A stretch of DNA of 64,000 nt from Bacilli bacterium (lineage in GTDB: Bacteria > Bacillota_I > Bacilli_A > ML615J-28 > CAG-698): contig JBMNLZ010000003.1 in assembly GCA_050953065.1 (NCBI GenBank), positions 365,544 to 429,543 on the forward strand, in the 5' to 3' direction. The position numbers and the translations under genes are program-made. Below the pieces are notes generated by a model. It worked only from the letters and a program-made list of their open reading frames with translations, did no database searches and was not told the DNA's origin. Below, in pieces: positions 22,398 to 49,268 of the stretch; position 1 is the first letter of the stretch; the number at the start of each line of letters is the position of its first letter.

Positions 22398-22404
22398 AAC
22401 TCAC

Positions 22405-24310: not shown

Positions 24311-24338
24311 AAAAAACTGTGTCTTGCGACACAGTTTT
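24311..24338 (-). terminator. rho-independent terminator after the binding-protein gene
   Basis: AAAACTGTGTC/GACACAGTTTT stem with loop TTGC, followed by T7 on the minus strand. Confidence 0.75.
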
Positions 24339-24348
24339 CATTATTATA

Positions 24349-25998: not shown

Positions 25999-26060
25999 TT
26001 TTCCTCCTCATTTTTCGTCTTTTTTTTTAAGAATTTCCTTAAGATAAGGTTTACATCAAT

Positions 26061-26089
26061 ATTATATAACAAATCAAAGATATTTGCAA
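26061..26089 (-). promoter_or_regulatory. promoter of the binding-protein gene
   Basis: Minus strand: TTGCAA, 17 nt, TATAAT. Confidence 0.55.
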
Positions 26090-26092
26090 TAT

Positions 26093-27019: not shown

Positions 27020-27020
27020 A

Positions 27021-29268: not shown

Positions 29269-29299
29269 AAAGATGTCATTTAATAAATGACATCTTTTA
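29269..29299 (-). terminator. terminator closing the nine-gene transporter operon
   Basis: 13-bp stem AAAAGATGTCATT/AATGACATCTTTT with loop TAATA and T/A runs on both sides. Confidence 0.7.
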
Positions 29300-29305
29300 T
29301 TTAGA

Positions 29306-30328
29306 TTAACCAACAATACCTGTTCTTTCAATGCTCTCAACAAATAATTTTTGAACAAAGAAATAAGCTATTAGTAATGGTAACATCATTAACAATGCCA
29401 TGGTATTACTTAAAAGTCCTAAGAATTGCGAACTTCTGATTATATCAACATCTATTCCAAGTCTATTCCAATAAGCCATATTACCACCGATAACTGTACT
29501 TGTGTTTTCAGCTAAACCAAATAATTTAGTACCTAAAACTGTAGTATATCTAAATACTTGGGCGAAATAATAATCATTCCATTGCCAAACAAAAGCAAAC
29601 AATCCAACAGTAACAATCGCACCACGAGCGTTTGGAAGCATTACACTCCAGAAAGTTCTAATAACACCCGCACCATCTATTTGAGCAGACTCTTCTAATT
29701 CAATAGGGACTCCCCTAAAGAATTGCCTAAAGATATATATAAAGATAGCAGACCTTATCCCCATACCAAACGCTGACATGATATACATCGCAAACCATTT
29801 TCCAATGAGCATGATTCCAAAGAATCCATTATTAGAAAAATATAGCCTTCTTGCAATATTAAGTGTTTCATTTGGTACTACTAATGTAAATAACACGATA
29901 AAGAATATAATGTTATTTCCAGGAAATTTAAGTCTTGCAAATGAGTACCCTGCAACTGCCGTAGCAATTATTTGAATAAAAGTACTAATTGATGCTAACA
30001 CTAAACTACCAAAGAATGAATCCACATAACTCATTAATTCCCAAGATAGTCTAATATTTATTAAACTAAAAGTTTCAGGAATCCACATTACTCTTGGATT
30101 AGAAATATCTTGTGGTGCACGTAGTGCAAAACTAAATTTCTGGATTAGAGGTAATATAATAATAAAACACAAACCAGTCAACAATAACATTCTTAACAAA
30201 ATTGCGAAGAACATCAAAACCTTTTGGTTTCTAAGTCTTGCAGTGCTTGGATCTCTCCAAGCTGCAGCGAAATCACTTAACTTTTCTTTAAAAGTTTTCT
30301 TCATTACTTTATTCTCATTATTCGTCAT
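29306..30328 (-). CDS. CUT1 carbohydrate ABC transporter permease (MalG-type)
   Basis: EAA loop ESAQIDGAGVIRTFWSVMLPNARG. The probable start is MTNNENK at 30328, overlapping the upstream permease; the track start at 30370 lies well inside the upstream gene. Confidence 0.85.
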   Translation of the reverse strand: MTNNENKVMKKTFKEKLSDFAAAWRDPSTARLRNQKVLMFFAILLRMLLLTGLCFIIILPLIQKFSFALRAPQDISNPRVMWIPETFSLINIRLSWELMSYVDSFFGSLVLASISTFIQIIATAVAGYSFARLKFPGNNIIFFIVLFTLVVPNETLNIARRLYFSNNGFFGIMLIGKWFAMYIMSAFGMGIRSAIFIYIFRQFFRGVPIELEESAQIDGAGVIRTFWSVMLPNARGAIVTVGLFAFVWQWNDYYFAQVFRYTTVLGTKLFGLAENTSTVIGGNMAYWNRLGIDVDIIRSSQFLGLLSNTMALLMMLPLLIAYFFVQKLFVESIERTGIVG

Positions 30329-31436
30329 AGTAGAACACCATCCTTGATAATAAGAATAGAACAATAGCAATTATTAACAACGCTCCTAAGCAGAACAACC
30401 ATGACATCGCTGCATTTATGCCATAATTGGATAGATACGTTTTAACTCCATCATCAATAGGCGTACCTAAGAATGTTGAAACTCCATAATTACTATTAAC
30501 GTTTCCTGCACTGATAAACTTCTTAAGTTCTCTTAAGACATCTGATCTTAAGAAGGCATCAACTATCGTATAAACCCCTGCCGTAAGCATTAAAGGTGAA
30601 ACCATTGGGAAAGTTATTTTCCAGAAAATTTCATACTGAGTTGCGCCTTCAATCTTTGCTGCCTCATACAAATGTTTAGGCACAGATTGAATACCAGATA
30701 GGAAGATTAATATTTGAACACCCGAATAAGAAATTATATCATAAATTCTTGATACTGCATCTCCTAAATAGCCAACAAAAGTAACTGGCAAGTTTGCACT
30801 TAACAAGAAATCTTGGAAACTAAACATTGATGCGAACAATTCTCTTGTTGTTGCATTAATTGAATCTTGCATAACTGTACTAGTTGAAAGTGCTGCCTCA
30901 ATTGCTTGAGAGTTAAAGATAACCGGCATAAAGAAGATTGCTCTTACTAAAGCACGACCTTTAAACTTTGTATTTAGAATAACTGCAATAATTAAACTAA
31001 AGATTAGAATAATTGGAACATCTATTAAAATACTAATAATTGAACTAGACAATGTTTGAGTATAACTTGGATGTTCTAAGAAAATATATTTATAATTTCC
31101 TAATCCTAAAAACTGAGTTTGAACCCCTTCACCAGCTGCTCCTTTTACATAACAAAAACTATAATATAGAGTTTGTATAAAAGGAATAAAGAAGAAATAT
31201 ATAAATCCTATCATCAAAGGAATTATAAAGACAACTCCCCAAAGGGCTTTTCTTTTTCTATAAACAATTTTTGAAGCGATTTTCTTTGGAATATAACCCA
31301 TAATTTCACTAAATTTAATCATAAACTTAGTTTGTCTGAATTTATACCAAACCTCACTCAGCCAAGATCTGAACCTGCTAAATAGTCTACCGATTGGAGC
31401 AAACATTTTAGCAAAAATTGATTTAATTTTTCCCAT
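30318..31436 (-). CDS. CUT1 carbohydrate ABC transporter permease (MalF-type)
   Basis: EAA loop YEAAKIEGATQYEIFWKITFPMVSP. RBS is AGGAGG. Confidence 0.85.
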   Translation of the reverse strand: MGKIKSIFAKMFAPIGRLFSRFRSWLSEVWYKFRQTKFMIKFSEIMGYIPKKIASKIVYRKRKALWGVVFIIPLMIGFIYFFFIPFIQTLYYSFCYVKGAAGEGVQTQFLGLGNYKYIFLEHPSYTQTLSSSIISILIDVPIILIFSLIIAVILNTKFKGRALVRAIFFMPVIFNSQAIEAALSTSTVMQDSINATTRELFASMFSFQDFLLSANLPVTFVGYLGDAVSRIYDIISYSGVQILIFLSGIQSVPKHLYEAAKIEGATQYEIFWKITFPMVSPLMLTAGVYTIVDAFLRSDVLRELKKFISAGNVNSNYGVSTFLGTPIDDGVKTYLSNYGINAAMSWLFCLGALLIIAIVLFLLSRMVFYYDE

Positions 31437-31437
31437 A

Positions 31438-34400
31438 TTAATGACCTCCTGATAAGACTAAATAGCTTTTCGCTTTTACTGTAATTCCGTTTATACTATC
31501 AACATAATCTGCTGTAAGCGATTTGTTAATTAATATTTCAACACCATTAGAATAAACTACCTTAACAACATTTGTTCTTCCACCTACTAATTCATGACTT
31601 ACTAATCTTCCACCATGAATTCCAACTGCATCTAAAGTTTCTTTAGTATTAACAACTTTAGCTTTCCAGTTAGCATAATAAGTTTGAGGATAATGATTGT
31701 ATCTTGTATCATATAAAATCTTTGGATCTTCATATGAGAAAACAAATTGTAAATTAGAACCAGTTTCAAGTAGTTTCAATAATTCCATTTGCTCATCACC
31801 AGTAAGGTTATAAGCTGGTCCAGTGTAATCAAATAATCCACTTATTATTAATTGATAGAAAGGAATTGTATAGTCAATGATTGGATTTTGTGATGAATAA
31901 ATAGGCACATCAACTGCATAGTCAACATATGATAATGCATATTCAAATGGCGCACTTAATTTAACCTTACCAATCTCTTCTTTAAACATTCCAAGAGCTT
32001 GTTTTTGATAAGCACAACCAACCTCAGCATATACTTCTGCTCCTCTTTGATAATCACTAACTTTAACATTTCCTAAGTCAACTGCATATACACCTTCACT
32101 GTTTAACTTCTTAAATGAAGGAAGTAGTGTGTCAACTAGCGAAGTATAATATTTAGCAGAAACATAGTTTGTTCCTATATAAGTTCTCTTATCTTGAACT
32201 TTTGTTGCTAAGTTATAAGGATAATGCGTAGAATATGATGCACCAATACTCTTACCAGTATATTTCATATTACCAAAAGAATAATCATAACCTTTATTTG
32301 TAGTAACATTCATTTCTGGATAAAAATCAATATTGTTTTGATACAAGAAATCTTTGAACTTATTTAAGCCCTTCACTCCTCCTAAAACTTTTGCAACTTT
32401 ATGATTGCTACGAGCTTTAAATTCTAAAGCATCCTCACTCCAACCACGATAACTAACACTTAAATTATGAATATCATAATCCATTAATTCTTCTAATATT
32501 TCTTGTGCTTGTTTGAATGTAGTAAGAGATGATTTAATTTTATGTTTAACTCCTAAAGTTAAGATATATCTTTCATAAGCTCCTAAAAAGTTAACATCAA
32601 CTAACGTATTAGCACTTGTATCATGTGCTTCAAGTAAATATTTATTAACTAAATAAATTCTATATACTTCAGCTACTTTTGAATATGTTAATTGATTAGC
32701 CCTTAAGAATATAAAGTCATATTGAAAATCAATTGTATTTAAAGTTGTACTCCATTTATTAAACTTAGAAGTATTCCATTTATTAGTACCAACTGCAACT
32801 TCTTCCATTTCTCTAAAATAAGTTTGGAATTTAGCATGGTTATATGGTTTACCACGTTGACTATCATGAAGTGTTCCTGCATCAAGAACAGAACTATTAG
32901 CACCATTTGCTACTATTCCAACAACACCCTTTTGATTAGTTGTATCAATGTAACCATACATTGGAAACATCAATTTTTCAGCGTTATCAGAATCAGGCAT
33001 TTGATATGGAGCAATATTCATATCTCTACCATACATCCTCTTCCTAAAATCATTATAGTTTAATTCTTGAGCACCATTATTAAACTTAATAACAGCGCCA
33101 GACCCATCTGGTACAACTAACATACCTTCGCTTGTAGCCTCATCATTAAACGTAAAATATGGTAAAAAGTCAATATATGATAAACGATAATTATGACTAT
33201 AAGGATCATTATAATCAAGTGAACCATTACCTTCTTTTAATATATCACCTAAAAGCATGAATTTAACGCCTTCATAATCTTTTGCTAAAGATACTTCCAT
33301 ACCAACTCTAAATCTAACAGGTACTAAGTCACCTTCAACACCAAAGTATTGGTTTTCATGGTAAGCTTCTTCTATTGAATAATATGCTGGAATTGGCAAG
33401 CCATCTTCATCATAAATAAAGCCATCTTCATCTCGTGCTGCATATCCTGCATTTCTTCTCGCAAGATAATATTTAGGATCATCTTCTAGATTATCAAAAT
33501 TCAAAGATTTAGCTGCTACAAGCTCATCAATTTTATCTTGGTCATCTAAAAGACTTGCATCATAAACATATTTTTCATTTACTAAATGTCTTTCAGATGT
33601 TTCATAAAGCAAATTAAATAAAGCTGTAAATTGTGTGCTAGATGTCGCTTTTAATTTATAAAAACGATATTTATCAGGCTCTTCATCTTTGTTTACTTGA
33701 TCATCTGTTTCGATTTTATAAAATCCATCAAATAATGAGTTTTTAGTTCCTTCATAAATAAACGGGTTAACTATACAAGGAGAGGCTCCTTCTTCGCCAT
33801 AATTAGTTGCATTAATTGTTGTTCCCCAGCCATTAACAAACTCTTCAGTTAAATAAGTTATATTAAAGTAAAGGTTTGTAGCATCTGGTTCAACTGTTTC
33901 TGGAAGCGGATTTACATCTCCATAGTTGTTATCATGAATATATTTTGCAACATCATAATTTGATGTTGTAGCACTATAAGTGCCACTATTTTGATATTCT
34001 CTATATCTAACCACTCTAATAGACATAGTATCACCAAATGAATCCATAATACTTACATTAGCATATTCTTGATTAATTCTAATATTCCCGATGAATTGAT
34101 TAATCATTTTTTCAATTCTCATTTTATCTGGATAATAAGTTTGAGTAAAACGACCTATATCATAAGAGATTTGAACCCCATCATCAATGTAATTAATAGC
34201 ATAATGTTTTTCATATGTATTTGATGTTTTATTATAAAAGTTTACGCTATCAGTCATAGTATTAAGACCAGTTGTAATTTGAGTTCCATTAGCACCATAA
34301 TAGAACAATCTAAAATGGCTACCATAGGCTGAAGATACATCATCATTAGTTGTTGTATATGTCTTACCTGTTCTTTTATCAACAATTGTAATTCTAGTAG

Positions 34401-34638
34401 TTTCTTCATTGATAAACATTTCAAAATTGTCATTTTCAGCAAACTTTTTATTATTATCAAATGTTTCCATTGAAGATGCTTCAACAAAATCTTCTAGATT
34501 TATTTTTTTATTAGTAAAAGCTAATTCTTCTGCTAAAGCAATAGTACTAAGACCTCCAACAAAATAAACTAATAACGTAATCACTAAAACAATAACTAAT
34601 AAAGAAGGAATAATATATTTAGCTTTTAAAAATCTCAT
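31438..34638 (-). CDS. giant N-terminally membrane-anchored extracytoplasmic protein of unknown function (DUF5696-like?)
   Basis: About 1066 aa with one N-terminal TM (IIPSLLVIVLVITLLVYFVGGL). No motif was recognised. Its size and its neighbours (a Yip1 protein, CUT1 permeases) resemble DUF5696-type proteins as I recall them. The second ATG (34638) has better spacing from GGAGGG. Confidence 0.75.
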   Translation of the reverse strand: MRFLKAKYIIPSLLVIVLVITLLVYFVGGLSTIALAEELAFTNKKINLEDFVEASSMETFDNNKKFAENDNFEMFINEETTRITIVDKRTGKTYTTTNDDVSSAYGSHFRLFYYGANGTQITTGLNTMTDSVNFYNKTSNTYEKHYAINYIDDGVQISYDIGRFTQTYYPDKMRIEKMINQFIGNIRINQEYANVSIMDSFGDTMSIRVVRYREYQNSGTYSATTSNYDVAKYIHDNNYGDVNPLPETVEPDATNLYFNITYLTEEFVNGWGTTINATNYGEEGASPCIVNPFIYEGTKNSLFDGFYKIETDDQVNKDEEPDKYRFYKLKATSSTQFTALFNLLYETSERHLVNEKYVYDASLLDDQDKIDELVAAKSLNFDNLEDDPKYYLARRNAGYAARDEDGFIYDEDGLPIPAYYSIEEAYHENQYFGVEGDLVPVRFRVGMEVSLAKDYEGVKFMLLGDILKEGNGSLDYNDPYSHNYRLSYIDFLPYFTFNDEATSEGMLVVPDGSGAVIKFNNGAQELNYNDFRKRMYGRDMNIAPYQMPDSDNAEKLMFPMYGYIDTTNQKGVVGIVANGANSSVLDAGTLHDSQRGKPYNHAKFQTYFREMEEVAVGTNKWNTSKFNKWSTTLNTIDFQYDFIFLRANQLTYSKVAEVYRIYLVNKYLLEAHDTSANTLVDVNFLGAYERYILTLGVKHKIKSSLTTFKQAQEILEELMDYDIHNLSVSYRGWSEDALEFKARSNHKVAKVLGGVKGLNKFKDFLYQNNIDFYPEMNVTTNKGYDYSFGNMKYTGKSIGASYSTHYPYNLATKVQDKRTYIGTNYVSAKYYTSLVDTLLPSFKKLNSEGVYAVDLGNVKVSDYQRGAEVYAEVGCAYQKQALGMFKEEIGKVKLSAPFEYALSYVDYAVDVPIYSSQNPIIDYTIPFYQLIISGLFDYTGPAYNLTGDEQMELLKLLETGSNLQFVFSYEDPKILYDTRYNHYPQTYYANWKAKVVNTKETLDAVGIHGGRLVSHELVGGRTNVVKVVYSNGVEILINKSLTADYVDSINGITVKAKSYLVLSGGH

Positions 34639-34649
34639 AAACATCCCTC

Positions 34650-35339
34650 CTATAAATACCTCAGTGATATTTCACGATAAATGGTATATATGAAACCTAT
34701 TATTGTTTGGAAAAGGTTGAAGCAAAGAAGTAGGATAAATGCAACTACCATCGCTGCAATTGCAGTAGCAACAATAGTAAGAATACATTTAAGTAAACCG
34801 TACTCATGAACTCCAATAATTCCAAAGAAAGCCATATATCCCATCATGAACACACCAAGACTATTTACTAAATGATATAAAGCCATCTCTTCTGCAACAA
34901 GCACATTGCTTAAAACCATTCCTATAATAGTAGTAAATATCATAGGATATAAGCAATAACTTATCATTAAAAAGATATCTTTCATTTTTCCTTTACCATC
35001 AAACAAAGTCGCAACTGACCAGTTTGAAACAGTAAATAAAACAATCGGAGCAACAACATAAGCAATTTCTGCGAATGTGCTCAATTCATTAATATTTCTA
35101 TCACTTACTAAGAATCCCAAAAATTGGAATTTTAGTATTTGAAGTAAAATAATCACAGCAATAAATGTTAAAGCTACTGACCATTTACCTCTATTTTCTC
35201 TTTTGAATTCATCAAAACCTTTAATTGGGTGAGCTAAAATATAACCAGGGAATTTAACGAATTCTGCATAAAAATACTTTAATCTACTTTTTACTTTAGC
35301 ACCAAAGCCAGTTTTATTATTTGTTTCAGTATTATTCAT
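34650..35339 (-). CDS. Yip1-domain polytopic membrane protein
   Basis: N-terminal HPIKGFDEFKRENRGKW followed by five TM segments. Its start overlaps the upstream stop as TAATG. Confidence 0.7.
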   Translation of the reverse strand: MNNTETNNKTGFGAKVKSRLKYFYAEFVKFPGYILAHPIKGFDEFKRENRGKWSVALTFIAVIILLQILKFQFLGFLVSDRNINELSTFAEIAYVVAPIVLFTVSNWSVATLFDGKGKMKDIFLMISYCLYPMIFTTIIGMVLSNVLVAEEMALYHLVNSLGVFMMGYMAFFGIIGVHEYGLLKCILTIVATAIAAMVVAFILLLCFNLFQTIIGFIYTIYREISLRYL

Positions 35340-37045
35340 TATTCATCACCTATTCCTGATTCTTCATAACCACCTCGTTTTACACGTTTGTATATACTCC
35401 ATCCCACTAATCCTACGACTATAGCTAAGCCTATATACATTACAGTTGTAAAATATTCCTTGATTATCTCATCACGATATAATTTATAAGCACGTGAATA
35501 TAAATCTTTATTATAACCAAGTTCGAAGTAATCTAATGCTTCAATGTATTCACCCTCATACATTAAAGTCTTTCCAATACCAACATATGCATATTGATAG
35601 TTAGCATTTTTTTGAACAACTTTTCGCCATTCTCTTGCAGACTCAATATAGTCTCCATCAACATAATACTTAACTGCTTTATTGATAATTGCTCCAATAT
35701 CTGTTGGTTGGAAAACCATTAAAGCTTTTGAGTTTTTATCAATCAGTAAAACATTTTCACCTTGATAAACAAGTGCTACTGGATTATCAAGCTCATTAAT
35801 TTGAGTTCCTTTTCCACCTGAAATATAAAGCAAGTTTCCTTCAGCATCATATGTAAAAAGTCTTCCGTTAGCTGAGTCTGCTACAGTATAAATTCCATAA
35901 TCATTAACTGCAATTGCAGTTAAGTCAGGATGAGATGTTGCTTGAGTTGTTCTTAGGTATACTATATCTCCCTTAGGTACATTATAACCATTTCTCTTTA
36001 AAACATCACTTTCAGCTGGATTTAACTTCTTAATCATTGATCTATCGTTAGTTACAAGACCTTTTGTATTAGTAGTAGGACCAGCTGTTGTATAAATGAA
36101 GTTAGCGCTATCTATACAAAGAGAGTTAAAGATTTGGTTTAATACTTGCGTAGATTGAGAAAGTTGAGCCTCAGTTGCAAGATTTCTCCAGAATATTTCC
36201 CAAACACTTAAAGCAACTTTATTAACCCCAGTAAAACCATAAAATTCTCCAGTTGGACTTAGTTTAATAATCCCTTCATTAATTCCTGAAGAAATTACAT
36301 AAAGTCTTCCTGAACTATCTGCTACCATTTTGAAAGGTAAGAAAGCCTTTGTTTTAAAAGCATGCGCTTGTGGAGTTGAAATTACTCTAATAACTTTAAA
36401 TGTATCACTATCTAAAACAATGACTTGTTGGTTATTAGTATCACAAATATAGATATAATCTTCTCCTGTAGTTCTAACTACACCTCTAAAGACTCCATTT
36501 GGACCATTTAAAACAATACTAGCTCCAGTTGCTTGAAAATCTTCAAAGCTAACTAAACCAACATTTGTTCCATCTACTTCTCTAATAATTAAAGGAGTTC
36601 TAATACCATTATTATTAGTATTAATCTTTAATGCTTCTTCATATGTAAACTTTGTTTTATCAAGTTCAAAGGCATCAATTACATAATCATCTTCTGGATT
36701 ATCATCTACTCCCATTATTTTTAAAAGACTTAAATTCTTATCAAAAATAAACATCTTATTAGAAATTGAGTCTACTAAATAAAGTTTTTCTTCATATCCT
36801 AATAATTCATGGAATTCATTTCTTAATTCTTTTTTAAACAAAAACAAATCAGCTGGTGATCTAAAGTCAGCATCTCTTAACCCTAAATCTCCAAACTTAT
36901 AAACATTTGACACAGTAAGACCTTTATCAGAATAGATTGGTTTATTATCATGAGTATAAATATATCCTGTTTCAGCCTTTACTATCGGCAAAGTACACAT
37001 TAAAACCATTAAAATAAATACAATTAAAATTCTTCTTTTTATCAT
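35339..37045 (-). CDS. secreted beta-propeller-like (NHL/YVTN-type repeats) protein with C-terminal TPR-like segment and TM anchor
   Basis: Signal peptide ...LPIVKA|E. Repeated strand-rich units are present (LYVISSG, LFTYDAEGNLLYISGG, DNPVALVYQGENVLLID). It then has YAYVGIGKTLMYEGEYIEALDYF (TPR-like) and the TM MYIGLAIVVGLVGWSIY. Confidence 0.65.
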   Translation of the reverse strand: MIKRRILIVFILMVLMCTLPIVKAETGYIYTHDNKPIYSDKGLTVSNVYKFGDLGLRDADFRSPADLFLFKKELRNEFHELLGYEEKLYLVDSISNKMFIFDKNLSLLKIMGVDDNPEDDYVIDAFELDKTKFTYEEALKINTNNNGIRTPLIIREVDGTNVGLVSFEDFQATGASIVLNGPNGVFRGVVRTTGEDYIYICDTNNQQVIVLDSDTFKVIRVISTPQAHAFKTKAFLPFKMVADSSGRLYVISSGINEGIIKLSPTGEFYGFTGVNKVALSVWEIFWRNLATEAQLSQSTQVLNQIFNSLCIDSANFIYTTAGPTTNTKGLVTNDRSMIKKLNPAESDVLKRNGYNVPKGDIVYLRTTQATSHPDLTAIAVNDYGIYTVADSANGRLFTYDAEGNLLYISGGKGTQINELDNPVALVYQGENVLLIDKNSKALMVFQPTDIGAIINKAVKYYVDGDYIESAREWRKVVQKNANYQYAYVGIGKTLMYEGEYIEALDYFELGYNKDLYSRAYKLYRDEIIKEYFTTVMYIGLAIVVGLVGWSIYKRVKRGGYEESGIGDE

Positions 37046-37057
37046 TTCAATTCACCT

Positions 37058-38572: not shown

Positions 38573-38586
38573 CTTGTCCTCCTTTC

Positions 38587-39663
38587 CTATGTGCCGACCT
38601 TGCGGATAATCTTTTGAATTGCTTTATTAAGTAGTATCGCTGTTACGAATAATAGTGTTGCGATGGCTGAGGCATATCCCATTTCAAATCTAACACTACC
38701 ATAATCGGTTAAGTGGTTGATGATTGTATGTCCTGAATATTCAATTGAAGGGAATCCTGCCAAAGCTGTTGAAATCGCACCAACACCAAGAGAAGCTGAA
38801 ATTTGAATAACGGCACTAAATGTTAATTGTGGTTTCATATTAGGTAATGTAATAAACCATAATTCTTGCCATCTATTTCTAACACCATCCACGGCAGCTG
38901 CTTCATATTGAGTTTTATCAACGCTCTTTAATCCCGCAATTAAAGCTAGGAAGTTAACACCTAAACTCATCCATAATTGTACTACAATAATAATCGGCAA
39001 AATATATTTTGAGTTTTGAAGCCAAGTAATTGGTTCTGCAATAAATCCAAATTGGATTAAGAATGAGTTCGCATAACCATAAATATCACTATTGAAAATC
39101 AAAGTCCAAATAAGAATCGCATTTCCTGCTAAAGAAGGAGCATAGAATGCTAAAGTAATAAATGGTTTTATTTTTGGAGGTAATTCATTAATTAACCAAG
39201 CAAATACGAAACTCAGTAAATATCCAATCGGTCCAGTAACAACTGCAATAATCAAAGTGTTTTTAACTGCAGTTATAAAAATATCATCATCTAAAAACAA
39301 AGTTAAATAGTTTGAAAAGCCTACCCAACGTGGTGCTTCTAAAAGGTTAAAATAAGTAAAACTTAATCCAAAGCTCATTACAACTGGTAAAACTGTAAAA
39401 ACAGTGAATAGTAGTACATAAGGAAACATCATTAGATATAGAGTTCTATTTAAATATAGTTTTCTTCTAAAAGGTTTCTTTCTACTCCACAGATCAATTT
39501 TCTTTCCAGTGCGCTCTTTCCAAGCAATAAATCTTTTCCATAAATCTTTTAAAGTTTTCTTACCTTGAGAAGAATCATTAGACTTTGTTGATTCACTAAT
39601 TTCTTCAAGATTATTGTTTTCTTCTTTAGAAACATTTAAATCTTTATCAATTACATTTTCCAT
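38587..39663 (-). CDS. CUT1 carbohydrate ABC transporter permease (MalF-type) with ~60-aa acidic/Ser-rich N-terminal extension
   Basis: EAA loop YEAAAVDGVRNRWQELWFITLPNMKP. Confidence 0.85.
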   Translation of the reverse strand: MENVIDKDLNVSKEENNNLEEISESTKSNDSSQGKKTLKDLWKRFIAWKERTGKKIDLWSRKKPFRRKLYLNRTLYLMMFPYVLLFTVFTVLPVVMSFGLSFTYFNLLEAPRWVGFSNYLTLFLDDDIFITAVKNTLIIAVVTGPIGYLLSFVFAWLINELPPKIKPFITLAFYAPSLAGNAILIWTLIFNSDIYGYANSFLIQFGFIAEPITWLQNSKYILPIIIVVQLWMSLGVNFLALIAGLKSVDKTQYEAAAVDGVRNRWQELWFITLPNMKPQLTFSAVIQISASLGVGAISTALAGFPSIEYSGHTIINHLTDYGSVRFEMGYASAIATLLFVTAILLNKAIQKIIRKVGT

Positions 39664-39677
39664 TGATCTTCTCCTTT

Positions 39678-42600
39678 CTAATCAAGTCCAAACTCAGCGC
39701 GTTTTCTAGCAATCTCACTGTTTATAATTTGGATGTATTGTTCTAGTGTTTCGCGTGGTTCTTTATCTTTATTTACAACTTCACGGAAGGCATTTTCTAA
39801 GTTACGTCCTGTATAATATCCACCAGGAACTTCTGGTACACCAACAGTTTTTTTCCATTGAGTAGTTAATACTTCAATTTCTTTTGCTGTCCATGCCATT
39901 CTTCTAAATGCTTTAATATTAGGAGTATTATGACGAGCTGCTGGCCCTAAAACTGATTCCAATTCACGAGCATAAGCAAATTGTGTTTCTTCACTTGTCC
40001 ACCATTTCATAAATTCCCAAGCAGCTTCTTTTTCTCTAGCTTGAGCCATCATTACAACAGCAGTTCCACCTGCTGCACCTCTATGATCTAGAGTACCATC
40101 TTCTCTAATTGTTCCAGGAAGTAGGGCAAAGTCCCATTTACCTCTAATCTCTGGCGCAGAAACCATCAAAGTATTATACATTTCATAGTTAGCAATTCCA
40201 ATTGGAGTTTCCCCAGTTCTAAAACGGTTAAAGAATGATGCTGCAAGAGGGAAACTATATTCACTATAAAATCTTGACCAAGTATCAAAAGCATTCATTG
40301 CTGCAGGGCTATCAAAAGCTGATTCACGATTACCATTCTTATAGAATGTTCCATCTTGTTGATAAAGCATTGAAGCAAAGATTTGGTTAACTACAGAGTT
40401 AGCTAAAACTGTATTAAGTGGTAAATAAAATTGCAAGTTTTTAAGTTGTAATTCTGGAATAATTTCAATTACATCTTCCCAAGTCCAAGGATTTTCTAAA
40501 GTAGGACGTTTCCATTCATATTCATTGAAAATATCTGTTCTATAAAATGTTACTAAAAATGACTGAGTATTAGGTAAAGCATAATATGCACCGTTTAACT
40601 CATATGGAACCATGGCACTTGCTTGGAAGTTTCTATTTTCATCTTCTGGATCTACATTTGCAGTACATGTTCCACGAGCAATTTCATCCGCTGAACAAAT
40701 TCCAGTTGTTTCATAGAATCCCTCATATTTTGAAATATCTTCAATTGCATTACGAAGTGCATAGTTAATTGGAAGTCCATTTGGAACGTTGATTGCTACA
40801 TCAGGCCCTCTTTTTGCAAGTGTTGCTGGAAGTAGTACACCAGGTGCTACTAATTTCAAGCTAACGTTTGCATGATCAAATGTATCTAAAATTAGATTAC
40901 TCAAAGCATTTGCTTGTTCACGTCCAGCTGTCTCACTTGTTAAAAACCAAACTTGAATTGTTGGTAAATTAGCTTTAGCTTCAGTTACACCAATACTTTC
41001 ATAATCAAAGAAGAATGATTTGAAGAATGATTTAATACTAAACCAACTACCTGCAAAGAAATTAGGATTTGCTTTTGGCAAAGCATTTTTCCTGCTTAAA
41101 CTTGATTTATCTGAATGAATAAATAATTGATCAACTACAATTGATTGTTCACTGATTTGTAAAATCCATGTTCCTAAAGCTGAAATGTTGTTACTATAAT
41201 CTTTAAGACGTCTTTGAATCGTTCTAACGTTATTAACAAATGAATCAAGTTGTAGAGCCATTCTATCAAGACTTGCTGTCATATCGCTTTTCCCACCAGA
41301 TAATTCAGCTAAGATTCTATTAACATCTCTTAACTCTTTTGCACATTTTGCAAATGTTTCTTTTAATCCAACAATGCTTTTGCCATCTTCATAATAAACA
41401 GAAACAAAATCAGCTAAGTTTTCTACTAAGTAATAATCAATATATGGGTCTGGGTTTAAAGTAGTAACTGCAATAATTCTACGATAAACTCTATTTAACT
41501 CATCAATTACTGTATTTACTCTACTAACTAAACTACTGTAATCTCCTAAAGTTGCTTCCATTGTAATAGTATTTTTACCAGCATTTAAGTGGAAATAATA
41601 TGGAATTTCTTTTCCTGTCTCATCAAAGCCGCCCAAAGTCATGATTTTCCAATCTCTACTAAACTTGTATTTAGTATTTAGTGCTTCATCAAAAGGTACC
41701 TCACCATTTATTAAAACTTTTCTTGTCGTATAAACACCTCTTGAAACTCCTTGTTTTGCTCTAAATGAAATTTGATATAATCCTTCTTTTTCTACATCTA
41801 CTTTCCAAGAAATCCAATCGCCAGGTGAAGACCATTTAGTTCCACCAATTGCATTATATCTAATCCTTACAGGGTCACACGGAGAGTTCTTCGCACTCGT
41901 TCTATCATTTACTGCATAAAGTGTCGCAGATGAAGATGTTCTAATGTTTGGGTCTTCTGCTTCGTATAAAATCATCGTATCATCAACTTTATCAGCATCA
42001 TCAAACTGACCTATATAATCACTATAAGACATATAATCAGTTTTAGCACAAATATCAATTGCAAAAATACTCATTGGTTCTCTAATTGATTCAATTGTGA
42101 TTGTATTTTCACCTTCAAGCAAATGAATTAAATAAGGTTCAGTAACATACCCTAAATCATCTACAACATAGGCTCTAGTAATTTTTGGTTTTTCAATTTG
42201 AGTTGGTTTCATATCATTGCCCATGGCATCCATAAAGAACATTGATCCTTTAGATGCATCAATTGGACCATCTCCCCAAGTTCTTGAAAACACAATATTT
42301 TTCAAAGCCTCATATGGAGTTACGCCATTGATTTTAATACTTCTTTCAATTGATGCAGAACCACCTTTCTCAGGATAATAACTAAGTCTAATATTATAAT
42401 ATCCTGCATCTGGTACTGTAAATTTCCAAGTTGCACTACCTACTTCTGAAGTATAAAAAGGCTTAACTCCATTTACGATTGTTGCAAGATTAGCAACATC
42501 TGTAAAATCAGAGTGTACTAAGTCAGTATTATTTGTTGTATCAATAGTAATATTATTATTTGGAGTAATCATTTCATATGCTTTTAAATACTCCCCATAT

Positions 42601-42770
42601 TCGCCAACTATTTCATAATCTCCAGGCACTGTTGCTTTTGTATAAACATGGCCCGAAGCATAACTTGTAATCACACTACTTAAAAATAATGCAACTAAAA
42701 GAACTAGTATAATTAGCAAGATACTGCGTTTAACTAATTTAGGTGTGATCAATCCCTTAAGTTTTTTCAT
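39678..42770 (-). CDS. 1030-aa membrane-anchored protein: two CBM-like beta-sandwich modules + helical linker + C-terminal extracellular solute-binding domain
   Basis: N-terminal TM. There is an internal duplication: ATWKFTVPDAGYYNIRLSYYP...RSIKINGVTPYEAL...FSRTW and ISWKVDVEKEGLYQISFRAK...RKVLINGEVPFDEAL...FSRDW (a CBM6/35-like pattern). The C-terminal ~400 aa are SBP-like. Its ATGA overlaps GH20. Confidence 0.82.
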   Translation of the reverse strand: MKKLKGLITPKLVKRSILLIILVLLVALFLSSVITSYASGHVYTKATVPGDYEIVGEYGEYLKAYEMITPNNNITIDTTNNTDLVHSDFTDVANLATIVNGVKPFYTSEVGSATWKFTVPDAGYYNIRLSYYPEKGGSASIERSIKINGVTPYEALKNIVFSRTWGDGPIDASKGSMFFMDAMGNDMKPTQIEKPKITRAYVVDDLGYVTEPYLIHLLEGENTITIESIREPMSIFAIDICAKTDYMSYSDYIGQFDDADKVDDTMILYEAEDPNIRTSSSATLYAVNDRTSAKNSPCDPVRIRYNAIGGTKWSSPGDWISWKVDVEKEGLYQISFRAKQGVSRGVYTTRKVLINGEVPFDEALNTKYKFSRDWKIMTLGGFDETGKEIPYYFHLNAGKNTITMEATLGDYSSLVSRVNTVIDELNRVYRRIIAVTTLNPDPYIDYYLVENLADFVSVYYEDGKSIVGLKETFAKCAKELRDVNRILAELSGGKSDMTASLDRMALQLDSFVNNVRTIQRRLKDYSNNISALGTWILQISEQSIVVDQLFIHSDKSSLSRKNALPKANPNFFAGSWFSIKSFFKSFFFDYESIGVTEAKANLPTIQVWFLTSETAGREQANALSNLILDTFDHANVSLKLVAPGVLLPATLAKRGPDVAINVPNGLPINYALRNAIEDISKYEGFYETTGICSADEIARGTCTANVDPEDENRNFQASAMVPYELNGAYYALPNTQSFLVTFYRTDIFNEYEWKRPTLENPWTWEDVIEIIPELQLKNLQFYLPLNTVLANSVVNQIFASMLYQQDGTFYKNGNRESAFDSPAAMNAFDTWSRFYSEYSFPLAASFFNRFRTGETPIGIANYEMYNTLMVSAPEIRGKWDFALLPGTIREDGTLDHRGAAGGTAVVMMAQAREKEAAWEFMKWWTSEETQFAYARELESVLGPAARHNTPNIKAFRRMAWTAKEIEVLTTQWKKTVGVPEVPGGYYTGRNLENAFREVVNKDKEPRETLEQYIQIINSEIARKRAEFGLD

Positions 42771-44617
42771 TTTTTTACCCCTTCTATGTATTTTAATCTT
42801 TCTTCTGAAAATACAATTAGTTTTTCAATATAATCTAACGTTTCATTTAACATGCTTTCTTTGTTTCTTTGAAGCCATAAAGTTTTTAAATCATTTTTAA
42901 TTTTTAAAGCGTCTTTTAAGGCTTCTTTTAACAGTGTGATTCTTACAGTTTTTTCTAAAGAATCATTCCCACAAACATTAATTTTTAGTAATAAAGAAAT
43001 CATCTCAATTGTCCAAACAACTTCATCTTTAATTAAAGAATCATTAAATTTGATAAGCTCAATTTCTTTTTTCTTATAGTTTAAATATTCTTCTGCACTT
43101 TGATATTTCTTATAACTCAAAGTATTATATTTCATCTTTTCTTTAACATATTCTATCCTATTTTCTTCTTTGAAAGAATAAGTTATCCAAAGCAACATAT
43201 AAAATGTAGCAGTCCCATTACCAATATAAGCATTTTCAAAGCGATTGATTGTTCCTAAATCCATAATAGCATCTGCTATTAGGTTTTCTTTATCTTTGAA
43301 AATAAATCTATTTAAATATTGTTTAACTGATAGATAAACTCCTTCTTCACATCTGTAACTCATTAAGCCAGCATAGACAAGTGGTGCAAAACTAAATGGT
43401 AACATCTGCATATGTCCGACATCTCCCCAATCAGTTAATAAGATTCCTTCACCACCGTTATCCTTAACAGCCCAACAAGCGTTCGCAATGTTCTCAATCC
43501 AATCACTTTGTCTTAGTGATAAACTACACCAAGAAGTAGTTCCAGGAGCTGCCATGAATTTTACTTTGGCTTTTTTTAGCTTTTTAATATTTTTAGAGAA
43601 AGAATAAAAAGCATCATAGCCCCAATCAATAAAAATCATATCTTTTGGAAGCTTTTTAAATAACTCAGGATGATTATTTAAAACATCTCCCCAAATCAAA
43701 GGAATTTTTTTATATTTTTTTATCTCTTTATAAGCTTTTAATGTATAGTCTAAATAAACCTTGCCAAGACCTACTTTCTCACATTCAGCCTTTGACTTAC
43801 CTTTACCTAGTTCAAATGGTTCATCAAAGTTCATATTGAAGTATTTTGAATTAGAATGAGGCAACATATCTTGATACATTTTCTTTAATAACTCTAAAGA
43901 TTTTGGATCAAGTGGATTGAGTGTACTTGGCGCTCTATGAGTCCCCCATAAATGAATTCCTTCAGGACACTCTGCCAAACTAGAAAACTCATCTTTTTTA
44001 AGCCAAGCGGCCATATGACCAAAACCATTTTGATTTGGAACTAAATCTATAAAATGTTTATTAGCATAGTCTTCAATTGCTTTATATTCTTCAACTGTAA
44101 TATATGAATCCTTTTTTAAATAATCTTTAAAACTTTGATATTCAAAAGAAAAACCTTCAACATATAATTCTAAATGATTCATTTTTAAATCACTCATAAT
44201 ATCAATAATTTTAAAAACAGTTTCTATTTTAGGAACTTTATTTCGGCTTATGTCATACATAAAGCCTCTTATTTTTAAATCTGGTTCATCATAGATTTCT
44301 AGACATTCTATTTGATTGTTTTTAATAATTTGTTTTAAAGTCTTAACTGCATAATATGCACCTGGTGCATCTTTATGATAAATCGTAATAACATCTGGTT
44401 TAACTTCAATTTTATATGCTTCAGCACTTAATTTTTTGTCAATAAAAAAACGAACATCGGCTTTTTTAGATTTACCTACTTGCAAATTTAAAAAAGAATC
44501 CAATTCTTTCTTAACTATTTCATTGGGCTTGTCAAAAAAAGCAATGCTCTTTTCTTTCATTTTGTAAACGTCGTTATTATATTTTATTTCTTTTACCTTA
44601 GGAAATATATTTACCAT
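42767..44617 (-). CDS. GH20-like beta-N-acetylhexosaminidase, cytoplasmic
   Basis: TIM-barrel region RGFMYDISRNKVP...MNHLELYVE...NQNGFGHM...FNMNFDEP resembles the GH20 catalytic domain. No signal peptide is present. Confidence 0.78.
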   Translation of the reverse strand: MVNIFPKVKEIKYNNDVYKMKEKSIAFFDKPNEIVKKELDSFLNLQVGKSKKADVRFFIDKKLSAEAYKIEVKPDVITIYHKDAPGAYYAVKTLKQIIKNNQIECLEIYDEPDLKIRGFMYDISRNKVPKIETVFKIIDIMSDLKMNHLELYVEGFSFEYQSFKDYLKKDSYITVEEYKAIEDYANKHFIDLVPNQNGFGHMAAWLKKDEFSSLAECPEGIHLWGTHRAPSTLNPLDPKSLELLKKMYQDMLPHSNSKYFNMNFDEPFELGKGKSKAECEKVGLGKVYLDYTLKAYKEIKKYKKIPLIWGDVLNNHPELFKKLPKDMIFIDWGYDAFYSFSKNIKKLKKAKVKFMAAPGTTSWCSLSLRQSDWIENIANACWAVKDNGGEGILLTDWGDVGHMQMLPFSFAPLVYAGLMSYRCEEGVYLSVKQYLNRFIFKDKENLIADAIMDLGTINRFENAYIGNGTATFYMLLWITYSFKEENRIEYVKEKMKYNTLSYKKYQSAEEYLNYKKKEIELIKFNDSLIKDEVVWTIEMISLLLKINVCGNDSLEKTVRITLLKEALKDALKIKNDLKTLWLQRNKESMLNETLDYIEKLIVFSEERLKYIEGVKK

Positions 44618-44656
44618 AAAAACTCCATTTTGCTATATAAATGTATTACTCTAATT

Positions 44657-44685
44657 ATTATATAACAAAAAGCGTTTTTATTCAA
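44657..44685 (-). promoter_or_regulatory. promoter of the nine-gene GH20/transporter operon
   Basis: Minus strand: TTGAAT, 17 nt, TATAAT. Confidence 0.55.
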
Positions 44686-44780: not shown

Positions 44781-44808
44781 AAAAAGCAAGGTTTTAAAAC
44801 CTTACTTT
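44781..44808 (-). terminator. terminator overlapping the stop codon of the 44802-46142 gene
   Basis: AAGTAAGGTT/AACCTTGCTT stem (one G-U pair) with loop TTAA, followed by T5 on the minus strand. Confidence 0.6.
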
Positions 44809-46142: not shown

Positions 46143-46212
46143 TTTATTACCTCTAAACAAATTTATTTGATAACTCATTTTAACAAATATTTAAACAATT
46201 AGCAAGAAAAAG

Positions 46213-46242
46213 AAAGATAGTCTAATTTATTAAACTATCTTT
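46213..46242 (-). terminator. terminator after the GHL10 gene
   Basis: AAAGATAGT/ACTATCTTT stem with a 12-nt loop and a T-rich tail on the minus strand. Confidence 0.6.
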
Positions 46243-46253
46243 TTAATTTATAC

Positions 46254-47558: not shown

Positions 47559-47559
47559 T

Positions 47560-48252: not shown

Positions 48253-48255
48253 AGA

Positions 48256-49239: not shown

Positions 49240-49268
49240 ATATCTTTTCTCCTCTAAGTTTATTTTTT

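Follow-up and report, generated by a model that had tools for sequence, protein, structure and literature searches.

The question raised by this locus is why one operon should encode four CUT1 permeases, a giant binding protein (SBP) and three proteins of other kinds, with no importer ATPase among its genes. The operon lies on the minus strand of the window (the whole 64-kb stretch of DNA analysed), where nine tightly packed genes occupy positions 29306-44617 and every ORF was found where it had earlier been placed. The recomputed intergenic gaps are +14, +14, +12, +5 and +1 nt and the overlaps are 4, 1 and 11 nt; both start/stop overlaps, ATGA at 42770-42767 and TAATG at 35341-35337, were read directly in the sequence, and the nine-gene operon is confirmed. 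The features of the region are as follows.

44657-44685, minus strand: promoter-like site TTGAAT-17-TATAAT, 40 nt before the start codon of GH20 (consensus match only)
42767-44617, minus strand: GH20 beta-N-acetylhexosaminidase-like protein, 616 aa (Pfam Glyco_hydro_20b and Glyco_hydro_20)
39678-42770, minus strand: giant SBP, 1030 aa (SBP_bac_8 E 2e-18; SBP_bac_8/1 Pfam matches)
38587-39663, minus strand: F1, MalF/UgpA-type CUT1 permease, 358 aa (BPD_transp_1; NCBIfam UgpA/GlcT-like; EAA motif YEAAAVDG)
37058-38572, minus strand: G1, fusion of DUF975 with a MalG/UgpE-type CUT1 permease, 504 aa (DUF975 74.8 bits; BPD_transp_1; UgpE-like; EAA motif IESAKIDG)
35339-37045, minus strand: NHL/TPR protein, 568 aa (N-terminal signal/anchor; C-terminal TM helix, residues 533-551)
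34650-35339, minus strand: Yip1-family membrane protein, 229 aa (Pfam Yip1 42 bits, cut-off 28.6 bits; five predicted TM segments)
31438-34644, minus strand: DUF5696 protein, 1068 aa (DUF5696 E 1.4e-119; N-terminal TM anchor)
30318-31436, minus strand: F2, divergent MalF-type CUT1 permease, 372 aa (BPD_transp_1 28.4 bits; UgpA-like; EAA motif YEAAKIEG)
29306-30328, minus strand: G2, MalG-type CUT1 permease, 340 aa from the ATG at 30328 (BPD_transp_1; UgpE-like; EAA motif EESAQIDG)
29269-29299, minus strand: hairpin 3' of the last permease, perfect 16-bp stem (-16.7 kcal/mol, z = -7.1)
27021-29238, minus strand: GH3 (NagZ-like, cytoplasmic) and NagB-like deaminase genes (Pfam), directly downstream in close relatives
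24349-25998, minus strand: second, ordinary SBP, 549 aa (Pfam Big_2 and SBP_bac_1), displaced in the window's lineage downstream of GH3-NagB-GNAT

The promoter of the original prediction is present as sequence, but the region holds no excess of promoter-like sites (75, where 92.9 would be expected), so the match is compatible with a promoter and is not evidence for one. The proposed terminator is a perfect hairpin and a possible intrinsic terminator; however, its U-tract is poor and the GH3 gene starts 30 nt beyond it, so read-through is possible, and the GH3 and NagB-like genes may be co-transcribed with the operon. GH3-NagB synteny is also seen in loci L001, L003, L005-L009, L012 and L168.

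Linkage of the DUF5696, Yip1 and propeller genes to ABC permeases in other genomes, on which the original prediction hung, was borne out very strongly. The core order giant SBP-F1-G1-NHL/TPR-Yip1-DUF5696-F2-G2 was found in 136 of the 164 fetched loci, some of which are duplicated between scans; of the remaining 28, contig ends truncate most, a few show rearrangement with the genes still clustered, and two carry frameshifts. The scans were each seeded on a DUF5696 motif and took the best 80 loci each, so that the sampling is biased, from at least 594 and 406 genome loci found; the family itself comprises 4297 representative clusters at 50% identity. Carriers of the core order include Paenibacillus, Cohnella, Lederbergia, Mahella, Caldicoprobacter, Clostridia and uncultured Bacilli, and several genomes hold two or three copies of the module. 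The same order recurs, at 20-23% DUF5696 identity, in two additional loci, where precomputed Pfam calls independently place NHL, TPR and Yip1 on one protein of 710-714 aa. None of the sampled DUF5696 genes lies outside this module context, and F2 directly follows the DUF5696 gene wherever the contig extends that far. A single SBP for the system, as first proposed, proved incomplete, since an ordinary second SBP occurs in 133 of the 136 complete loci (127 beside the core, six elsewhere in the locus). In the window this is the Big_2-SBP protein, and it is similarly displaced in L001, L005, L006, L008 and L009.

The giant SBP combines an N-terminal TM anchor (one segment predicted, residues 12-30), two regions weakly resembling CBM35/Golvesin_C beta-sandwiches, a coiled-coil stretch and, at the C-terminus, an SBP domain of CUT1 family 1. 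Its profile matched in the PDB the sugar SBP Lin1841 (E 5e-24), the CBM35 region of CITase (E 3e-5) and designed coiled coils, and its median length over the 136 complete loci is 982 aa. All of the Pfam families expected for the operon were found, NHL and TPR by way of an orthologue profile; the CBM call is a weak one (CBM_35 E 0.0015; Golvesin_C in six of 11 orthologues, best E 8.7e-5). The window's sequence on its own scores under the Pfam cut-offs for NHL and TPR, while NHL was detected in 9/11 orthologues. Against the PDB, the orthologue profile matched Pizza and PknD NHL propellers (E 2e-48 to 7e-22), with a six-bladed propeller, and TPR structures (E 9e-30). The NHL/TPR and Yip1 parts form a single protein in 49 of the 136 complete loci, with Yip1 as the C-terminal part, and are separate in the remaining 87.

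The giant DUF5696 protein, earlier regarded as unassigned, is not wholly so. Its AF2 model (pLDDT 88.9, pTM 0.84) retrieved GH129 (E 1e-23) and GH101 (E 1e-13) in a Foldseek search, followed by GH36 and GH31, and its profile aligned to ZgGH129 in three collinear pieces (E 2.5e-9) and to NagBb (E 2e-3); a profile of the barrel only gave no significant alignment. By model and profile, the protein is a predicted extracytoplasmic three-domain glycosidase fold and a distant GH129 homologue. It shares with GH129 (the Bifidobacterium bifidum alpha-N-acetylgalactosaminidase NagBb and the Zobellia galactanivorans 3,6-anhydro-D-galactosidase) and with GH101 an N-terminal beta-sandwich, a (beta/alpha)8 barrel and a C-terminal beta-sandwich, as well as a profile-level similarity and, in the window's clade, acidic residues at roughly equivalent barrel positions. 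It differs from both families in its identity of about 11-13%, its N-terminal membrane anchor, an insertion of roughly 200 residues in the long form, candidate catalytic residues that are not conserved family-wide, and the constant linkage of its gene to ABC permease genes. The window's long-form clade conserves both D856 and D/E901 (23/26), and in the set A8 the former is invariant and the latter nearly so. D856 and E901 are candidate catalytic carboxylates, mapped onto the GH129 pair by their spacing of 45 residues, that of the NagBb catalytic pair being 43. Family-wide, D856 is retained in 57 and D/E901 in 49 of 102 representatives, and the residues conserved throughout are D513, Y538, D541, D924, Q931, Y940, N946 and E960. 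The linkages cut by known GH129 and GH101 enzymes are alpha, those of peptidoglycan and chitin beta, and direct cutting of these backbones is therefore not implied.

The window copy is flanked by genes of peptidoglycan and amino-sugar catabolism. These encode NamZ, AnmK, a MurQ-like protein, GH3 twice, the NagB-like deaminase, PIG-L, GNATs, a beta-lactamase-family protein and a DAP-decarboxylase/M19 fusion; in L001, NamZ and MupG adjoin the operon. The GH20 gene is present in all eight close loci whose contig extends upstream of the giant SBP, and its product is predicted to be cytoplasmic, since no TM segment, signal peptide or hydrophobic segment was detected in it. No signals were predicted in GH20, GH3, NamZ, GHL10 or the peptidases, and outside anchoring is predicted for the giant SBP, the NHL/TPR protein and the DUF5696 protein only. 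Elsewhere the module is flanked by GH26 and LacI, by a kinase with NanE and GHL10, by isomerases, or by housekeeping genes. Judged by its own neighbours, the window copy probably has cell-wall amino-sugar oligomers as its special substrate.

The reported lack of an ATPase was confirmed, but it is nothing special to this locus. A search for ORFs with Walker A and LSGGQ found no importer-type ABC ATPase in the 64-kb window, its only such ORFs being two exporter-type fused ABC proteins at 5499-9161. ABC-ATPase-like ORFs lie within 10 kb of the core in just 10 of 164 homologous loci, none of these ten having an MsmK-sized ATPase gene beside the core. Firmicutes CUT1 systems often share one MsmK/MsmX ATPase encoded elsewhere.

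With moderate confidence, the operon is read as the amino-sugar or cell-wall-fragment version of a widespread, conserved double CUT1 importer module of monoderm bacteria, in which a surface capture and trimming apparatus feeds two translocons energised by an unlinked MsmK-type ATPase. The name proposed is double CUT1 importer with a GH129-like/NHL-TPR/Yip1 accessory set. Three anchored proteins would stand outside the membrane: the giant SBP, carrying beta-sandwich modules and its SBP domain on a coiled-coil stalk; the NHL/TPR protein, fixed in the membrane at either end and attached to Yip1 with its five helices; and the DUF5696 protein. This set would take hold of an oligo- or polysaccharide at the membrane surface and trim it there, with DUF5696 as the putative catalyst. 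The products would enter through the heterodimeric translocons F1G1 and F2G2, presumably served by the giant and the ordinary SBP, and both translocons would draw on the shared MsmK/MsmX-type ATPase. Cytoplasmic finishing would fall to GH20, the two GH3 enzymes, NamZ, AnmK, the MurQ-like and NagB-like proteins, the deacetylase and acetyltransferases, and the peptidases. The likely substrate would be GlcNAc/MurNAc-containing oligomers, and the accessory proteins and translocons may form a physical complex.

Compared with CUT1 importers in general (TC 3.A.1.1; MalEFGK2, UgpBAEC and the MsmK/MsmX sharers), the module has the usual family-1 SBP domain, BPD_transp_1 permeases of MalF/UgpA and MalG/UgpE type, EAA motifs and, as is common in Firmicutes, an ATPase encoded elsewhere. 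Unlike them it always encodes two permease pairs as one unit, one of its SBPs is membrane-anchored and about 1000 aa long with extra N-terminal modules and a coiled coil, and the GH129-like, NHL/TPR and Yip1 proteins are obligatorily linked to it. The predicted surface glycan-binders and putative surface glycosidase tied genetically to a transporter suggest a purely functional analogy with the Sus-like systems (polysaccharide utilisation loci) of Bacteroidota, which are likewise portable and occur in several copies with different enzyme sets; the module, however, has no SusC/SusD homologues and no outer membrane, and ABC importers carry out the transport. In Bacillus subtilis YknWXYZ another bacterial Yip1-family protein, YknW, is encoded with an ABC transporter (YknXYZ), whose assembly it is reported to modulate (PMC4887032, citing Yamada et al. 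2012); that system is a MacB-type exporter for efflux, of another ABC class and with a membrane-fusion protein, and it is without propeller/TPR protein, glycosidase-like protein or SBP. The claim of an undescribed system did not wholly stand. The module is widespread and experimentally uncharacterised, yet by annotation it already figures in the xylan degradation locus of Caldicellulosiruptor. The C. bescii genes Athe_0174-0181 (SBP-F-G-NHL protein-putative GH129-F-G-SBP) form one XynR/AraR-controlled unit (PMC8579813), which xylan and Avicel induce along with msmK (PMC8579813; PMC5658599). This locus, named xloEFG-X-GH129-axoFGE, with the C. saccharolyticus counterpart Csac_2419-2412, is by annotation and gene order the same module. 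The published account treats it as a pair of distinct transporters, along with the NHL protein and the putative GH129, and assigns no role to the middle genes; the context there is xylan rather than the amino sugars of the window.

That reading, two independent ordinary CUT1 importers side by side with the three middle genes as unconnected bystanders (a secreted glycosidase and a surface protein working by themselves, for instance), is considered quite unlikely here. It agrees with the treatment of XloEFG and AxoFGE as two transporters in PMC8579813, with the canonical look of all four permeases, each of which retains its EAA coupling motif on reading of the translations, and with the SBP-F-G composition of each half once the second SBP is included. 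It does not account for eight genes whose order is the same in Bacilli MAGs, Paenibacillus and Clostridia while their surroundings vary, nor for the gene lists of L165 and L166, which lack an ordinary second SBP yet retain four permeases, and neither importer half was seen alone wherever the contig context could be read. A single apparatus serving two translocons gains support from a gene order invariant to 20% identity, from the lack of sampled DUF5696 genes elsewhere and from the NHL/TPR-Yip1 fusions, which link a soluble-domain protein to an integral membrane partner. The apparatus could also be kept unchanged with DUF5696 as a catalytically dead GH129-like pseudo-enzyme, acting as an anchored glycan-binder or scaffold, or as a receptor for F2G2 that replaces or joins an SBP. 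This is a tentative possibility, on the unlikely side. About half of the 102 representatives carry other residues in place of the canonical beta4 and beta5/6 carboxylates, the residues invariant family-wide are others, the gene always stands right before F2-G2 where an SBP gene usually is, and the very different catabolic contexts are hard to square with one bond specificity. Conservation of both carboxylates in the window's clade argues for an enzyme, as do the many conserved acidic and aromatic residues at the C-terminal ends of the barrel strands, and D864, D912 and D924 could serve as replacement carboxylates in other clades.

It is highly improbable that the trio is a sensing or regulatory device outside the uptake path, with the propeller as an extracellular ligand sensor that gates or stabilises the transporters. 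The PknD sensor domain is the propeller's closest natural bacterial match in the PDB (E 7e-22), and YknW is reported to modulate assembly rather than transport (PMC4887032). However, no kinase, HTH, GGDEF or other output domain is fused to the module or conserved beside it, the flanking regulators vary (LacI, AraC, two-component systems) or are absent, and a regulator would hardly be a GH-fold protein of 850-1960 aa. A role in turnover, recycling or remodelling of the cell's own surface glycopolymers, in place of foraged glycans, is hardly credible, although the modules of L165 and L166 lie amid housekeeping genes without neighbouring catabolic CAZymes and the window copy lies amid genes of the peptidoglycan-recycling kind. 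The nearest relatives of the window include a MAG of the Acholeplasmataceae, whose members are wall-less, so that recycling of an own wall is moot there. GH26 mannanase and sugar-isomerase neighbours in other genomes, the paralogous copies per genome, and the induction by xylan and Avicel in Caldicellulosiruptor (PMC8579813; PMC5658599) also speak against such a role.

Two minor features concern the MalG-type permeases. The DUF975 membrane domain makes up residues 1 to about 190 of G1, and the fusion occurs in the window, L003 and L168 only, the median length of G1 being 290 aa elsewhere; it is peculiar to the window's lineage and not to the module. For G2, the longest ORF begins at a TTG at 30370, and the L168 orthologue is called as 340 aa.

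The nine open reading frames of the operon lie on the minus strand and occupy positions 29306-44617 of the window, in the order GH20, a giant binding protein (gSBP, 1030 aa), a MalF- and MalG-type permease pair (F1, G1), an NHL/TPR propeller protein, Yip1, DUF5696 and a second permease pair (F2, G2). The genes are as tightly packed as originally predicted, with gaps of +14, +14, +12, +5 and +1 nt and overlaps at the other three junctions; the ATGA junction between GH20 and gSBP (42770-42767) and the TAATG junction between NHL/TPR and Yip1 (35341-35337) were read directly in the sequence. The start of G2 is most likely the ATG at 30328, giving an 11-nt overlap with the preceding gene, since the orthologue of the nearest relative is called in the same way. 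Seven of 40 ORFs end in TGA, which means that the standard bacterial code is in use. Promoter-like hexamers are present at 44685-44657, where a promoter had been proposed, but such matches are not enriched in this AT-rich DNA and carry little weight. The terminator proposed downstream of the operon forms a perfectly paired 16-bp stem (-16.7 kcal/mol, z = -7.1), but its U-tract is poor, and because GH3 starts only 30 nt beyond it, transcriptional read-through is possible. A hydrophobicity scan found one N-terminal transmembrane segment each in gSBP and DUF5696, an N-terminal and a C-terminal segment in NHL/TPR, five segments in Yip1, and none in GH20, both GH3 proteins, NamZ, GHL10, the beta-lactamase-family protein or the decarboxylase-dipeptidase fusion. 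The operon is therefore predicted to encode five integral membrane proteins, a glycosidase (GH20) that stays in the cytoplasm, and three large proteins that are anchored to the membrane and face outwards.

The linkage of DUF5696, NHL/TPR and Yip1 to ABC permeases, on which the original prediction depended, recurs in other genomes. Two scans of species-representative genomes, seeded on a DUF5696 motif, gave at least 594 and 406 loci with overlap between the scans, which puts this CUT1 variant with three fixed extra proteins and a doubled translocon in about 1000 places. Fetched loci were annotated with HMMs built from close orthologues. The eight-gene core from gSBP to G2 is present in identical order in 136 of 164 loci (some duplicated between the scans); most of the remaining 28 are cut by contig ends, a few are rearranged but clustered (L081/L112, L156, L061/L161) and two are frameshifted. 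In these two, L083 (Bacillus sp. JCM 19034, 5874-14303) and L145, F1, NHL/TPR, F2 and G2 are each split in two ORFs, either in a decaying copy or through draft-assembly frameshifts. Twelve related loci from uncultured Bacilli and Acholeplasmataceae MAGs, with DUF5696 at 33-40% identity in eleven loci and at 82% in the twelfth, keep the order GH20-gSBP-F1-G1-NHL/TPR-Yip1-DUF5696-F2-G2-GH3-NagB as far as each contig extends. The same arrangement surrounds two distant DUF5696 proteins (20-23% identity; 1249 and 1960 aa) by independent precomputed gene and Pfam calls. The larger of these (P0007 of L166, 10001-15883) is roughly double the normal size, in a module that is otherwise standard and is flanked by a two-component system. 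Carriers belong to Paenibacillus, Cohnella, Lederbergia, Bacillus, Fundicoccus, Mahella, Caldicoprobacter, Hungateiclostridiaceae, Oscillospiraceae, Lachnospiraceae/Roseburia and Tissierellaceae; they thus include industrially relevant biomass degraders (Paenibacillus and, by annotation, Caldicellulosiruptor), Roseburia/Lachnospiraceae MAGs and reduced-genome Bacilli. A short contig binned to a Verrucomicrobiota MAG (Candidatus Udaeobacter, L092, 139-4144) carries DUF5696-F2-G2, by either horizontal transfer or binning error; another locus, L006, is likewise labelled Bacteroidales.

The flanks of the core differ between genomes. In P. amylolyticus it is accompanied by GH26 and LacI, and P. baekrokdamisoli has a kinase, DUF4127, NanE and GHL10 beside it; a Clostridiaceae MAG carries sugar isomerases and an oxidoreductase there, and in locus L165 the neighbours are housekeeping genes. 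Some genomes hold two or three copies of the module. To judge from these gene neighbourhoods, the core behaves as a portable cassette joined to differing catabolic enzymes.

Firmicutes take up oligosaccharides mainly through CUT1 ABC importers, which are thought to require only a solute-binding protein (SBP), two permeases and an ATPase. The Pfam families predicted for the operon were recovered (GH20b plus GH20, SBP_bac_8/1, BPD_transp_1 four times, DUF975, Yip1 and DUF5696). All four permeases score above the BPD_transp_1 cut-off, the EAA coupling motif was read in them, and their best partial matches in NCBIfam are UgpA/GlcT for F1 and F2 and UgpE/GlcU/MalG for G1 and G2. The GH20 protein has a GH20b N-domain (48.9 bits) and a GH20 barrel domain (62.2 bits), both over the cut-off. 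In gSBP the family-1 binding-protein match lies in the C-terminal third (residues 653-935, SBP_bac_8, E 2e-18), and a gSBP profile matched sugar SBPs in the PDB (E 5e-24). For the CBM label given earlier to the rest of the protein the support is weak (CBM_35, E 0.0015; Golvesin_C in 6 of 11 orthologues); gSBP also matches the CBM35 region of a glucanotransferase (E 3e-5), and another stretch matches designed coiled coils. Of the 136 complete loci, 133 also have an ordinary SBP of about 465 aa, which lies directly upstream of gSBP in 110, directly after G2 in 17 and elsewhere in the locus in 6. The DUF975 domain (PF06161) on residues 1 to ~185 of G1 (37058-38572, minus strand; 74.8 bits against a cut-off of 34.8) is fused to the permease only in the window and in its two closest relatives, L003 and L168 (82-91% identity), whereas in all other loci G1 is an unfused permease of about 290 aa.

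The window holds no importer-type ATPase within its 64 kb; its absence from the operon had been noted. Among the 164 homologous loci, an ABC-ATPase-like ORF lies within 10 kb in only 10 and an MsmK-sized gene beside the core in none, so that the lack of a linked ATPase characterises the class as a whole; as an unusual feature of the window it was ruled out. It fits the norm in Firmicutes, where MsmK/MsmX ATPases are shared and unlinked.

In the single window sequence the NHL and TPR domains proposed earlier fell below the Pfam cut-offs, but both were recovered with a profile of 11 NHL/TPR orthologues, which matched NHL propellers in the PDB (E 2e-48, in 5-6 stretches), including the PknD sensor domain (E 7e-22), and also TPR proteins (E 9e-30); NHL was found in 9 of the 11 orthologues and TPR_2 also in 9. 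Yip1 (PF04893) scores 42.0 bits against a cut-off of 28.6, spanning model positions 3-172 of 173. NHL/TPR and Yip1 are fused into one protein of roughly 690-790 aa in 49 of the complete loci and in the two distant ones, which argues that both act together at the membrane. A kinship of Yip1 with DUF975 was rejected, or is undetectable at this depth (hhalign probability 1%).

The window DUF5696 protein matches PF18952 at E 1.4e-119 (400.8 bits against a cut-off of 25.6; model positions 10-612 of 612). The family comprises 4297 clusters at 50% identity in an exhaustive HMM search. Even when given 7- and 102-sequence alignments, word-indexed homologue searches found no more than 6-7 relatives, and an exhaustive representative search was used instead. 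The AlphaFold2 model built with 102 sequences reached a pLDDT of 88.9 and a pTM of 0.84, while that with only 7 sequences was unusable (pLDDT 39). Foldseek against the PDB gave GH129 enzymes as best matches, namely the Zobellia 3,6-anhydro-D-galactosidase (E 1e-23) and Bifidobacterium NagBb (E 4e-20); the top entries 5opq, 8rzk and 5wz* range from E 1e-23 to 1e-18, with a target TM of 0.58-0.64 over ~670 columns, and are followed by GH101 (E 1e-13) and then GH36, GH31 and GH13. The 102-sequence profile aligned with ZgGH129 over three collinear pieces (E 2.5e-9) and also matched NagBb (E 2e-3); a single sequence, a 7-sequence profile (in the PDB sequence search) and a barrel-only profile gave no significant similarity to GH129. 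Since the Foldseek and profile matches both point there, DUF5696 is predicted to be a distant GH129 homologue rather than a clear member. The model has the GH129 layout of an N-terminal beta-sandwich, a (beta/alpha)8 barrel and a C-terminal beta-sandwich, to which DUF5696 adds a membrane anchor and the long-form clade of the window protein an insertion of about 200 residues.

Positions 32-100 of the barrel profile align weakly with residues 292-360 of NagBb. With the rough offset that this provides, the candidates D856, the Asp of a "DLG" motif, and E901 would fall at the expected GH129 nucleophile and acid/base positions. They are 45 residues apart; the catalytic pair of NagBb, Asp435/Glu478, has a spacing of 43. 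The barrel-only profile gave no significant match to the GH129 catalytic region (D486N versus wild type), so the mapping stays inferential. Both candidates are kept in 23 of 26 long-form proteins; across the 102 representatives D856 is kept in 56% and E901 in 48%. Invariant throughout the family are D513, in a PDGSG hairpin of the N-domain, and Y538, D541, D924, Q931, Y940, N946 and E960.

The operon is embedded in a ~34-kb block of amino-sugar and peptidoglycan catabolism genes. The features of this block and of its immediate context are:
18052-29238, downstream block: S33 hydrolase, MurQ-like SIS protein, AnmK, GH3, NamZ, double GNAT, NagB-like protein, second GH3, DUF624
23525-24244, minus strand, DUF624 membrane protein with five TM segments, encoded directly after the Big_2-SBP
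24349-25998, minus strand, Big_2-SBP, the second SBP of the window, 3' of GH3-NagB-GNAT
44802-52515, upstream block: GHL10, PIG-L-type deacetylase, GNAT, beta-lactamase-family protein, diaminopimelate/ornithine-decarboxylase-M19 fusion
44802-46178, minus strand, DUF6273 protein with an N-terminal anchor, between GHL10 and GH20
44810-44781, good terminator-like hairpin after the DUF6273 gene, dividing it from the operon
50326-52515, minus strand, 729 aa, GTG start, PLP-type Orn/DAP-decarboxylase module with a C-terminal M19 membrane-dipeptidase, an unusual fusion

With the DUF624 protein, one more small membrane protein is associated with a CUT1 component; its pairing with the Big_2-SBP is kept in L001, L005 and L009, and a DUF624 homologue lies just past the core on the opposite strand in L019, L021 and L083. 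In L001, L005 and L011 GHL10 directly precedes GH20 without the DUF6273 insertion. The syntenic block of L001 runs on into NamZ and a GH3-MupG fusion.

The catabolic enzymes of the ~34-kb block carry no export signals, and because of this enzyme content the cargo of the window copy would likeliest be GlcNAc/MurNAc-containing oligomers, with or without peptide stems; chitooligosaccharides are the alternative. The decarboxylase-M19 fusion could process DAP-containing peptide stems of imported muropeptides. Taken together, its genes resemble an island dedicated to the scavenging of cell-wall debris. Uncultured low-GC Bacilli, one of them an Acholeplasmataceae MAG, are the nearest relatives, which suggests that the host scavenges the walls of other cells and has a lifestyle on the cell-wall debris of other bacteria.

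Literature searches returned no papers naming DUF5696 or PF18952 and none on an operon combining NHL with an SBP. A regulon reconstruction of Caldicellulosiruptor bescii described the operon xloEFG-X-GH129-axoFGE (Athe_0174-0181), the genes of which are induced on xylan and Avicel under XynR/AraR, with msmK induced in parallel; its authors interpreted the operon as a pair of CUT1 transporters and assigned no function to the genes in between (PMC8579813). The orthologous transporters of C. saccharolyticus respond to xylan-rich biomass (PMC5658599). Judged by annotation and gene order alone, Athe_0174-0181 is the same module; an exact-DNA look-up for the Caldicellulosiruptor locus, with the XynR operator given in two papers and a C. 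saccharolyticus upstream stretch, gave 0 matches. For bacterial Yip1 the one functional precedent is YknW, which reportedly modulates assembly of the YknXYZ ABC transporter (PMC4887032). The claim that the trio lacks an assigned function and marks an undescribed system thus needs revision, as DUF5696 appears to be a distant GH129 homologue and the module already figures, by annotation, in the Caldicellulosiruptor literature, where it was taken for two separate transporters. All parts come from known superfamilies and the transporter core is a CUT1 importer, so the module is not categorically new. The fixed set of a doubled translocon, a stalked gSBP, an anchored GH129-like protein and NHL/TPR-Yip1 has not been recognised or studied as a unit, and the window operon is a lineage-specific member of it, with its DUF975 fusion, GH20 lead gene and peptidoglycan context.

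We lean towards a proposal in which gSBP, NHL/TPR and DUF5696, all anchored, would form with Yip1 a capture and trimming station at the membrane surface that feeds the two translocons F1G1 and F2G2. The gSBP and the ordinary SBP would serve these translocons, an unlinked MsmK-type ATPase would power both, and GH20, GH3, NamZ and other cytoplasmic enzymes would complete the breakdown. What the analysis itself establishes is the set of genes, their homologies and predicted topology, the fold, the invariant synteny, the fusion and the portability of the module; that the proteins associate physically, that DUF5696 is catalytic, which SBP pairs with which translocon and what the substrate is are inferred. 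A pair of independent importers, with passenger genes between them, would account for the paired permeases, yet this is an improbable reading, hard to reconcile with an order kept down to 20% identity and never seen split. That DUF5696 is non-catalytic, lectin-like or SBP-like, is unlikely for the window's clade in particular, but the family-wide loss of the canonical carboxylates makes it a serious option. There is a slight chance that the trio is sensing or regulatory, and a slighter one that the module handles the cell's own glycopolymers. No feature pointed to a role in defence or to a mobile element.

A stronger version of the proposed station, which we regard as doubtful, is a single supramolecular uptake machine: a Yip1 scaffold and an NHL/TPR arm would hold the GH129-like enzyme and the stalked gSBP over two translocons, mechanically coupling surface depolymerisation to the import of two product classes. 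In its sharpest form DUF5696 would dock on F2G2 as binding proteins do. Were this true, Gram-positive bacteria would have a counterpart of Sus-like systems, and ABC importers a new architectural class. The resemblance to a Bacteroidota Sus-like PUL is functional only; in the 29 window proteins scanned no Pfam families of SusC-like TonB-dependent transporters or SusD-like lipoproteins were found. If the parts act as one machine, the picture of glycan capture in monoderm bacteria would be revised and handles for engineering polysaccharide uptake gained. DUF5696 gains a fold and a testable enzymatic hypothesis, and the bacterial Yip1 and NHL/TPR proteins a concrete context. The module renders two orphan families testable.

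Further features of the window are:
10172-15019, minus strand, complete rRNA operon
9992-10148, 13296-13369 and 52609-52704, flanking and spacer tRNAs and a small SRP RNA
52913-61191, minus strand, two giant surface proteins with Big_2 repeats (1130 and 1334 aa) flanking a GDPD glycerophosphodiesterase

One of the Big_2 giants carries a metallophosphoesterase/purple-acid-phosphatase module, and these proteins may scavenge teichoic-acid or phospholipid head groups.
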